Assembly: GCA_021818445.1 (NCBI GenBank)
Contig: JAKAEB010000015.1
Location: forward strand, 50 to 64,049
Direction of reading: 5' to 3'
DNA length: 64,000 bases
Source: Planctomycetota bacterium
GTDB taxonomy: Bacteria; Planctomycetota; Phycisphaerae; WQYP01
Shown piece by piece: positions 38,740-39,531 of this stretch (its first letter is position 1; each line of letters begins with the position of its first letter). The position numbers and the translations under genes were made by a program. A model generated the notes under the pieces. The model ran no database searches and was not told the origin of the DNA. It was given only the letters and a program-made list of their open reading frames with translations.

Positions 38740-38994
38740 CCGGTTACGGCCGAATCGCGTTTGATTCCGCGACGCAGCCTCTGAGCCCTTCTTTTTCGGC
38801 GCGCCACAGGAACAACTTTCATCATGCCAGCGGCATGAAACGTTAGGTCACACGGAGAAGTTGTATTATCGCGCGCAGAGCCACGGAGAGAATTGAAAGC
38901 TACGAAATAACGCCGCGCCCAGTCTTTACGTTCTTGGCGCTCTCGGCGGTGCAAATAGGTACCTTGATTCACCGCGAAGCGGCTGTGTTAGTTG

Positions 38995-39300
38995 TCAAGC
39001 GTTTTTTACGATTTTGAGTTGGTCCCATGGAATATCCTCGCGAATCATAACATTAAGGATGGACAACAATTTTCGCATACAGGCGACAATGATGACTTTG
39101 GATGTCTTTCCAGCTTCACGCAAGCGATTGGCGAAAGCCTTGATAACGGGGTTTGATCGGATCGCTGTAACGGTGGCCATGCATCATCACGCGCGCACCA
39201 TGCACGCGGCTAAATGGGATGGCGGATGCGACAATGTTGTCACAGGGACCGCAATTTGGCATTGCAATTAGCGCCCATCGCCCGGCGATGGCGCTAAACA
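38995..39300 (-). mobile_element. IS110-family transposase 3' remnant (frameshifted, N-terminal ~3/4 missing)
   Basis: The 61-aa ORF 38995-39180 reads [51 protein letters not shown]. This matches the conserved C-terminus of IS110/IS116/IS902 transposases (Transposase_20 domain: NPVlKafY.RLra.GKp.[12 protein letters not shown].ilnamlr...pw). Upstream homology continues in a different frame (RVHGARVMM). Confidence 0.55.
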
Positions 39301-39376
39301 TGGTGCGTGCGGTTACCAAATCGGCGGCGGATGCGTGGGCGCACGCGGGCGGTGGCGCTAAACATGGTGCATGCGG
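39289..39376. repeat. two 24-nt direct repeats (23/24 identical) tggcgctaaacatggtgc(g/a)tgcgg separated by 40 nt, plus adjacent GC-rich imperfect palindrome
   Basis: Copy 1 is at 39289-39312 and copy 2 at 39353-39376. They lie at the upstream edge of the IS110 remnant and ~160 nt upstream of the tmRNA gene. Confidence 0.7.
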
Positions 39377-39531
39377 CGCTGCCGATAAGTTGGGACGTCG
39401 AAAAACAAACGCCGCAATGCGCTGGTTTTTGGGCGTTTTTACCTCTGCCAGGAAAATGGCCACACCCCCAGGGGATGCCGTTTTAGGGCATTTCGCGTTT
39501 CTGCGGGCGGCGGCTATAATGGAAGCGTCCC

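Follow-up and report, generated by a model that had tools for sequence, protein, structure and literature searches.

Dispersed copies of an insertion sequence (IS) recombine homologously, which rearranges the chromosome, and deletions adjacent to an IS leave truncated remnants. Classical islands at ssrA, the gene for transfer-messenger RNA (tmRNA), arise by integrase-driven entry at the ssrA 3′ end, duplicating that 3′ end. Elements of the IS110 group encode their bridge RNAs in the left end (LE). The locus described here, an IS110-family remnant at 38755–39180 with ssrA to its right, lies in a 64,000-nt stretch of the core chromosome of an uncultured Phycisphaerae (Planctomycetota) bacterium, the whole of which is referred to as the window (assembly GCA_021818445.1, contig JAKAEB010000015.1, positions 50 to 64,049 of the forward strand); coordinates are those of the window unless a comparison locus (L numbers) is named. 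IS621 and ISCro4 belong to the IS110 group, whose members encode DEDD recombinases guided by bridge RNAs (Durrant et al. 2024, PMC11208160; Hiraizumi et al. 2024, PMC11208158). A promoter at the junction of right end (RE) and LE, with its −35 box in the RE, has been described for IS110 elements, and the left end of IS110-group elements is typically much longer than the right (PMC11208160).

With a probability of roughly 0.8, the segment 38755–39180 is an inert remnant of a recently active IS110 element, with a recombinant origin in two steps. On this reading, a 61-codon IS tail that resembles an old, frameshifted pseudogene would be one of several alleles that differ between strains of an uncultured Phycisphaerae population, those seen being an intact IS, a truncated IS behind two different flanks, and no IS; the element would have been active recently, and the DNA 5′ of ssrA would be a hot spot of neighbour replacement beside a stable linkage of ssrA to a type II secretion system (T2SS)-like cluster. 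Sister contigs were found by exact-sequence look-up of two proteins encoded in the window, an 829-aa protein to the left of the remnant (13 metagenomic contigs) and the T2SSE protein to the right of ssrA (further contigs).

A truncated transposase gene and its right end

On the minus strand, 38995–39180 holds the last 61 codons and the stop of a transposase gene, the product ending ...PWDQLKIVKNA. This open reading frame (ORF) aligns with positions 289–341 of the 343 in the NCBIfam IS110-family model NF033542 (E=1.2e-6, 27.9 bits), the score lying below the full-length cut-off of 140 bits because the ORF is a fragment only, and tblastn gives 60–68% identity to the C-termini of annotated IS110 transposases. 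The model match, the identities of up to 68% and an intact allele at the same site in another sample (L065) together bear out the IS110-family C-terminus recognised here by a first-pass annotation made from the sequence alone; comparison of the translated segment with IS110 transposases returned significant similarity, and the objection that no IS110 hit might be found thus fails.

The retained codons correspond to residues 262–322 of the intact 322-aa protein, the ATG of the ORF being the internal Met of ...VLYMAT..., and a full-length transposase query yields a single high-scoring segment pair in the window, covering residues ~252–313 only (tblastn). Pfam returns nothing for the 61-aa ORF or the neighbouring frames, because only the last ~16 residue-equivalents of PF02371 are kept (in a homologue of 318 aa, PF01548 occupies residues 7–153 and PF02371 residues 194–277). 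The N-terminal DEDD RuvC-like domain (PF01548), present in the intact L065 allele, is not in the remnant; nor is the conserved-serine region of PF02371, the remnant beginning at residue 262 of 322, downstream of the ...FNRDSG... motif of L065; and 39181–39531 has no similarity to the left end of L065 (6715–7064) or to those of L069 and L070, which carry further intact copies. The catalytic part of this DEDD-type element, with PF01548 and the DSG serine region, is missing, as had been noticed from the sequence, and since the DEDD domain, the catalytic-serine region and the left end are all gone, the remnant is predicted to be inert as a transposon and unable to transpose.

No further IS110 piece was found in the 64-kb window by tblastn with the full-length transposase, and no transposase or integrase domain among the ~30 large ORFs scanned, which agrees with the earlier description of this segment as the only mobile-element trace in the window. 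Short ‘transposase’ homologues (P0001–P0007) were considered as a recurrent or domesticated fragment and rejected as gene-calling or contig-end artefacts of ordinary IS copies. Judged by its sequence, the segment is the inert 61-codon 3′ tail plus the RE of an IS110-family element of ~1.5 kb and of the bridge-recombinase type; in an annotation, 38755–39180 is best labelled an IS110-family remnant, with no gene called for the 61-aa ORF.

The extent of the IS-derived DNA is set by intact copies elsewhere. L065 is 99.93% identical to the window over 33250–39180 and then runs on as an intact IS, encoding at the window’s site a 322-aa IS110-family transposase with PF01548 and PF02371 that shows full-length homology to the structurally solved bridge recombinases ISCro4 (9t56) and IS621 (8wt6), with E about 1e-40. 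Only 4 nt of the window’s coding tail differ from L065 (39105, 39163, 39166 and 39171), and the insertion site lies 15–20 nt beyond the stop codon of the 829-aa gene. The same IS is found again in L069 (99% amino-acid identity), at a different locus beside a GH31 gene, and L069 aligns with the window from 39180 to 38755 at 87.7%; in the IS-free relative L002, host homology from the left reaches 38759. Since L069 homology extends down to 38755 and that of the L002 host sequence up to 38759, the host/IS junction is placed by these alignments within 38754–38759, leaving 38740–38754 as intergenic host sequence that separates the 829-aa stop codon from the outer IS end. The IS-derived DNA would then amount to 426 nt (38755–39180), comprising 186 nt of coding tail and a non-coding RE of ~240 nt on the minus strand (38755–38994) that is 100% identical to L065. 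The IS trace first noticed at 38995–39180 is therefore real but larger than had been stated, reaching 38755 as the ~240-nt RE is kept.

The first ~30 nt after the stop codon (CTTGACAACTAACACAGCCGCTTCGCGGTGAATC) are kept even in relatives ~60–74% identical over the C-terminal transposase tail, and a TTGACA −35-like hexamer within these ~30 nt overlaps the stop codon itself. An RE of only 30–50 nt, as drawn from alignment of L001 and L054–L056, was considered and dropped, L069 showing that ~240 nt travel with the IS lineage. No Rfam family matches the RE, only the tmRNA having matched within the scans; single-sequence folding gave no signal for the RE (z=−0.2 and 0.07) and none for the LE (z between −0.8 and +0.1 over all the segments folded, 39199–39531 among them), and no bridge RNA was identified in the IS ends by Rfam and such folding.

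Sequences resembling the element’s own ends recur around the intact copies. A right-end-like copy of 74–82% identity lies directly upstream of the left end in L065 (7065–7227), and right-end-like debris is found in L069 (1561–1840, situated 84 nt and ~240 nt beyond the RE) and in L075 (1–207). Of the 25 nt following the RE at the GH31 locus (ATTGGCCACATCATGACAATTAAGC), 22 match the start of the LE, which the flank at the 829-aa locus (CGGCCGTAACCGG...CAATTG) also resembles, and CGATTCGGCCGTAACCGG...CAATTG is a candidate IS target sequence. The debris suggests either repeated insertion beside older copies or a target resembling the element’s own end. In the left end of the intact IS, a 22-nt sequence (GACGAGCGAAGCGAGGAGTCAC) is perfectly duplicated in tandem (two copies), at L065 6867–6910 (minus strand) and L069 ~155–198. 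An 82%-identical relative of the IS, at L070 470–1995, is located immediately downstream of an AbiEi/AbiEii toxin–antitoxin pair and upstream of ackA.

The truncation junction

Identity between the IS sequence of the window and L065 stops exactly after ...GGTGGCCAT at 39180. From there the window and L075 both continue from ...GGTGGCCAT into GCATCATCACG, intact L065 continues from ...GGTGGCCAT into ATACAGAACG, and the IS-free L074 reads ...GATGGGTCAT followed by GCATCGTCGCG. Alignment of these four sequences places the truncation junction at 39178–39181, with IS sequence on the left and native ssrA-upstream DNA on the right, and with a 3-nt CAT microhomology at the 39180/39181 boundary (GGCCAT on the IS side, GGTCAT on the native side). 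L074, which belongs to the same metagenome-assembled genome (MAG) as L069, matches window 39175–45222 at 99.8%, including two 24-mers discussed below, and has no IS at its left. Because L074 carries 39175 onward without an IS, 39181–39531 (plus strand) is native ssrA-upstream DNA of the window’s haplotype.

A frameshift in the transposase, with homology continuing in another frame as ‘RVHGARVMM’, had been proposed in the first-pass annotation and does not survive this comparison, as the IS identity ends at 39180 in L065 and the IS-free L074 carries 39181 onward. The two in-frame stops in the stretch read as MVRA-stop-stop-C (39181–39201), reached by tblastn extension, were likewise discarded as chance, L065 and L074 showing that the stretch is not IS-derived. 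Nor does the remnant abut ssrA, as had been thought, 351 nt of native DNA separating the two.

An orthology of 39183–39215 to the intergenic DNA after the L002 829-aa orthologue (28/34, z=9.7) was entertained and then retracted, L074 showing native linkage of this DNA to ssrA. A GC-rich motif of ~35 nt ending ...CCCGGCGGCTAAATGGG is found at window 39189–39218, at L002 12556–12588 and, by eye, at L069 1709–1745; it sits in unrelated intergenic regions of three related genomes and resembles the ssrA −10 region (GGCGGCTATAATGG, 39507–39520). Its recurrence in L069 indicates dispersal and not orthology, and it may be a lineage-typical promoter-like or dispersed element.

Probable recombinant origin of the remnant

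The intact IS at exactly this site in L065, together with a junction microhomology typical of deletion, would fit decay in situ, in which an IS between the 829-aa gene and ssrA lost its 5′ three-quarters by one deletion, with no recombination between copies and no change of neighbour. The evidence from L075 makes such an origin unlikely. L075 (with 10 similar places) matches window 38755–45226 and is identical over 38991–41000, all 44 mismatches and 5 gaps falling within 38759–38990, where L075 has an L069-type right end, and its left flank is the GH31-locus flank of L069 at 99.6% identity. The same truncation junction thus sits behind two different right ends and two chromosomal flanks, in the window and in L075. 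At 39105, 39163, 39166 and 39171, moreover, the window shares its bases with L075 and L069, and L065 differs, so that the coding tail carries four bases of the L069/L075 copy and not those of the resident L065 copy, whereas in the right end the window follows L065. Two further observations on L065 point the same way: the sole ssrA contig recovered from its sample (L073) has EF-G-like and UbiA genes upstream of ssrA and not the 829-aa gene, and L065 beyond its left end runs into the diverged right-end-like copy and not into 39181 onward.

With its coding tail following the L069/L075 bases and its right end following L065, the window remnant is, by these diagnostic positions, a recombinant, a mosaic of two IS copies with the crossover in 38991–39104. 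In the first of two proposed steps, an illegitimate, microhomology-mediated deletion or rearrangement would have joined an IS copy with a break in its transposase gene to the DNA upstream of ssrA; in the second, the truncated copy would have recombined homologously with the intact copy at the 829-aa locus, through a crossover in 38991–39104, placing gyrA–DUF1015–829-aa beside ssrA. The remnant serves only as a homology patch for further recombination. Its description as the trace of an ‘old’ event has to be given up, the flanks being 99.9–100% identical among strains with an intact, a truncated or no IS, which identifies the events as recent strain-level polymorphisms.

Several considerations weigh against this account. 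The order and mechanism of both events are inferred. Every comparison sequence is a short-read metagenome contig or a MAG, and repeats are where such assemblies fail; contigs do break inside the remnant, L066 ending at 39123, L078 starting at 39069 and L068 ending at 38838. The contigs L064/L072, which repeat the window’s arrangement, may be the window’s own source contig and not an independent assembly. As to the element itself, 38755–38965 (~210 nt) may be a true long right end or a separate repeat travelling with this IS lineage, the 82%-identical relative L070 aligning only 29 nt past the transposase stop.

An assembly chimera, in which collapse of a multi-copy IS fragment had joined two loci that are not linked, so that the adjacency of 829-aa gene, remnant and ssrA existed in no cell, would give the same mosaic of diagnostic bases; the IS is multi-copy in the population (L065, L069), and in several samples contigs break off within or beside the remnant and where ssrA begins. 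Such a chimera is nonetheless quite unlikely. The parental copies share an exact stretch of 114 nt (38991–39104); as the contig names imply k=141, which exceeds that length, individual k-mers would have to take in diagnostic sites to its left and right. The same arrangement is reported for L064/L072, with 100% identity across 12 kb, and for 2 further similar places; and a third sample contributes L066 and L078, both matching the window at 100%, whose overlap falls inside the remnant.

Recombination between IS copies is thus preferred as the origin of the mosaic. The right-end-like debris beside both intact copies and the 22/25-nt left-end match at the GH31 locus also raise the idea that the flank exchanges 5′ of ssrA were not RecA-type accidents, and that intact copies supplied their bridge recombinase in trans, with right-end sequences left behind as its substrates. 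This idea is very doubtful; were it true, solo right ends of this IS lineage could be used again and again as recombination sites, rearranging the chromosome around fixed points such as ssrA.

Direct repeats in the native ssrA-upstream segment

Two 24-mers at 39289–39312 and 39353–39376 exist as first described (2 matches against 0 expected), and extend to 29 nt (R1, 39284–39312; R2, 39348–39376) with 27/29 identity and a 64-nt period (blastn E=1e-5). Their placement at the ‘upstream edge’ of the IS could not be upheld, since they lie 104–196 nt beyond the junction, in DNA that the IS-free L074 has. Intact copies whose ends match the 24-mer were looked for, and the 24-mers are not in the intact IS copies L065, L069, L070 and L071. 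They are confined to one ssrA-upstream haplotype (window, L064, L074 and L075), and are not present in the sister strain L073, whose tmRNA is 99.9% identical behind an unrelated promoter, nor in L049 or L057. With up to 4 mismatches allowed, 720 kb of related loci yielded no copy, and JGI metagenome contigs gave 0 matches; the 24-mers were rejected both as IS ends and as dispersed repetitive extragenic palindrome (REP)-like repeats. A conserved ssrA promoter architecture, shared with relatives that lack the IS, was rejected as well, the only carriers being of the same haplotype (L074, L075, L064).

A 29/35/29-nt geometry resembling a CRISPR, and similarity between the repeats far beyond chance, could still speak for a mobile or defence element, whether as IS ends, as target sites or as a two-repeat mini-CRISPR (29-nt repeat, 35-nt spacer, 29-nt repeat). 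This is extremely improbable: beyond the absence of the repeats from every intact IS copy and its flanks, their presence in the IS-free L074, and the lack of any further copy in the window or the 720 kb of relatives, even with 4–5 mismatches allowed, or in the JGI contigs, both halves of the spacer had 0 matches in viral contigs, where the 17-mer matches are chance. As a CRISPR array the pair was rejected on its having only two copies with 2 mismatches, no array found by TRF and no viral spacer match; no cas domains were found among the large ORFs scanned in the window. By their distribution, the 24/29-nt repeats are peculiar to the native ssrA-upstream haplotype and have no relation to the IS.

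A weak third copy of the left half of the repeat overlaps the ssrA −10 box (GCGGGCGGCGGCTATAA, 39503–39519; 3 matches against 0.49 expected in 64 kb), which is suggestive of local duplication of promoter-proximal sequence. A perfect TATAAT at 39515–39520, read directly, stands 11 nt before the mature tmRNA 5′ end. The GC-rich imperfect palindrome reported at 39271–39294 is present, forming a hairpin at ~39270–39295 in folds of both strands, and a weak bidirectional terminator-like hairpin lies at ~39404–39440; 39199–39531 gave no overall signal of structured RNA (z=−0.7 and −0.8).

The neighbourhood of ssrA

The tmRNA gene occupies 39532–39908 on the plus strand (ARAGORN; Rfam RF00023, 123 bits) and encodes the tag peptide AKNVKFPSAGSFGYRMAA. 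On its 3′ side, ssrA followed by T2SSE/T2SSF is kept in three related lineages (L046–48, L049–51 and L057) and in all sister strains, with T2SSE identities to the window of 88% in L046–48 and 76% in L049–51; L057 is a more remote relative, with a tmRNA 95% identical and only ~70% DNA identity where T2SSE begins. A search for a repeat of the ssrA 3′ end found a 30-mer and a 16-mer of the tmRNA 3′ end each once only in the window. The conserved ssrA–T2SS adjacency and the lack of such a repeat argue that the IS did not bring in the T2SS-like cluster, the suggestion that it had brought in or rearranged this cluster being abandoned. In L045, whose T2SSE (90% identical) came closest among the non-identical ones in the protein search, the T2SS-like cluster is preceded not by ssrA but by ribD and ~575 nt of unrelated DNA (1703–2349), so the ssrA–T2SS linkage does not hold throughout the genus.

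On the 5′ side, the neighbour of ssrA changes from lineage to lineage and even between sister strains. It is the 829-aa gene in the window and the GH31 flank in L075, both via the remnant, a Rhs-like tail in L074, EF-G-like and UbiA genes in L073, a YyaL-like gene in L049 and a PurQ-like gene in L057. Near-identical strains thus show four left neighbours, with two of the junctions running through the remnant, and on this point the link drawn at the outset between the IS remnant and rearrangement beside ssrA holds. Comparison of the ssrA neighbourhood across relatives showed the conserved T2SS side and the variable 5′ side; the ancestral junction, which such a comparison had been hoped to define, is not definable from the GTDB relatives, because each lineage has its own gene order beyond the 829-aa gene (L002 with rho, L003/L014 and L006/L010 with different genes).

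In L073, from the sample with the intact-IS allele, and in L077, identity to the window begins exactly at tmRNA nucleotide 1 (39532), at 99.9%. Both show 6 single-nucleotide differences in 39554–39589 and none in the next 1.4 kb examined, with 6 mismatches in total over a 5.7-kb alignment. It appears that alternative upstream haplotypes meet at a recombination boundary in the 5′ part of ssrA. The region examined covered window 39532–39600, L073 3392–3460 and the starts of L077, L080, L046–48 and L051, and contigs from several other assemblies begin at the equivalents of 39549–39596. In L074, 203–2064 encodes a Rhs-core-like C-terminal tail (...RYYAAHLGRWLTRDPIGYQGGINLYDYV...) with a variable toxin-like end, then a multi-pass membrane protein, which looks like a polymorphic toxin/immunity pair beside ssrA.

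Genomic context

The 829-aa protein is a VWA/GATase1-like membrane protein (gene 36250–38739), with orthologues in Phycisphaerae MAGs at 86%, 78%, 70% and ~58% identity, and its gene is preceded upstream by those for BacA, GyrA and DUF1015. On the 3′ side of ssrA follow T2SSE, two T2SSF-like genes and small pseudopilin-sized ORFs, then MutS and others. Three ORFs overlap the tmRNA gene or the IS junction, at 39617–40309 (minus strand, 230 aa), 39116–39592 (minus strand, 158 aa) and 39219–39560 (plus strand, 113 aa); these are GC-driven artefacts, of which gene callers give equivalents in related contigs, such as a 174-aa ORF in L046–48.

Comparison with known systems

The intact L065 allele resembles IS621 and ISCro4 in its 322-aa length, its PF01548 and PF02371 domains and its full-length homology. 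With the IS110 group it also shares long non-coding ends and site-specific insertion in intergenic DNA, and the TTGACA at the stop codon in its right end fits the published −35 box of the RE–LE junction (PMC11208160). It differs from the group in that both ends are long in the window’s IS lineage (left at least 350 nt, right ~240 nt), and the window itself keeps the last 61 codons and the right end only.

Islands at ssrA and this locus have in common a region beside ssrA that is hypervariable between strains, but here the variable side is the 5′ one and the 3′ neighbour, the T2SS-like cluster, is conserved; neither an integrase among the large ORFs scanned nor a repeat of the ssrA 3′ end, the marks of an ssrA-integrated island, was found in the window. 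The closer likeness is to IS-mediated rearrangement, with a truncated copy at a junction whose flank differs between near-identical strains and a crossover inside the IS homology; nothing here is unusual by that comparison. The recombining homology is short (426 bp), and one partner was already truncated. The element is a new member of the known IS110 family, and its history at this locus is an instance of a well-known phenomenon, ordinary IS-associated rearrangement, implying no new mechanism or family.

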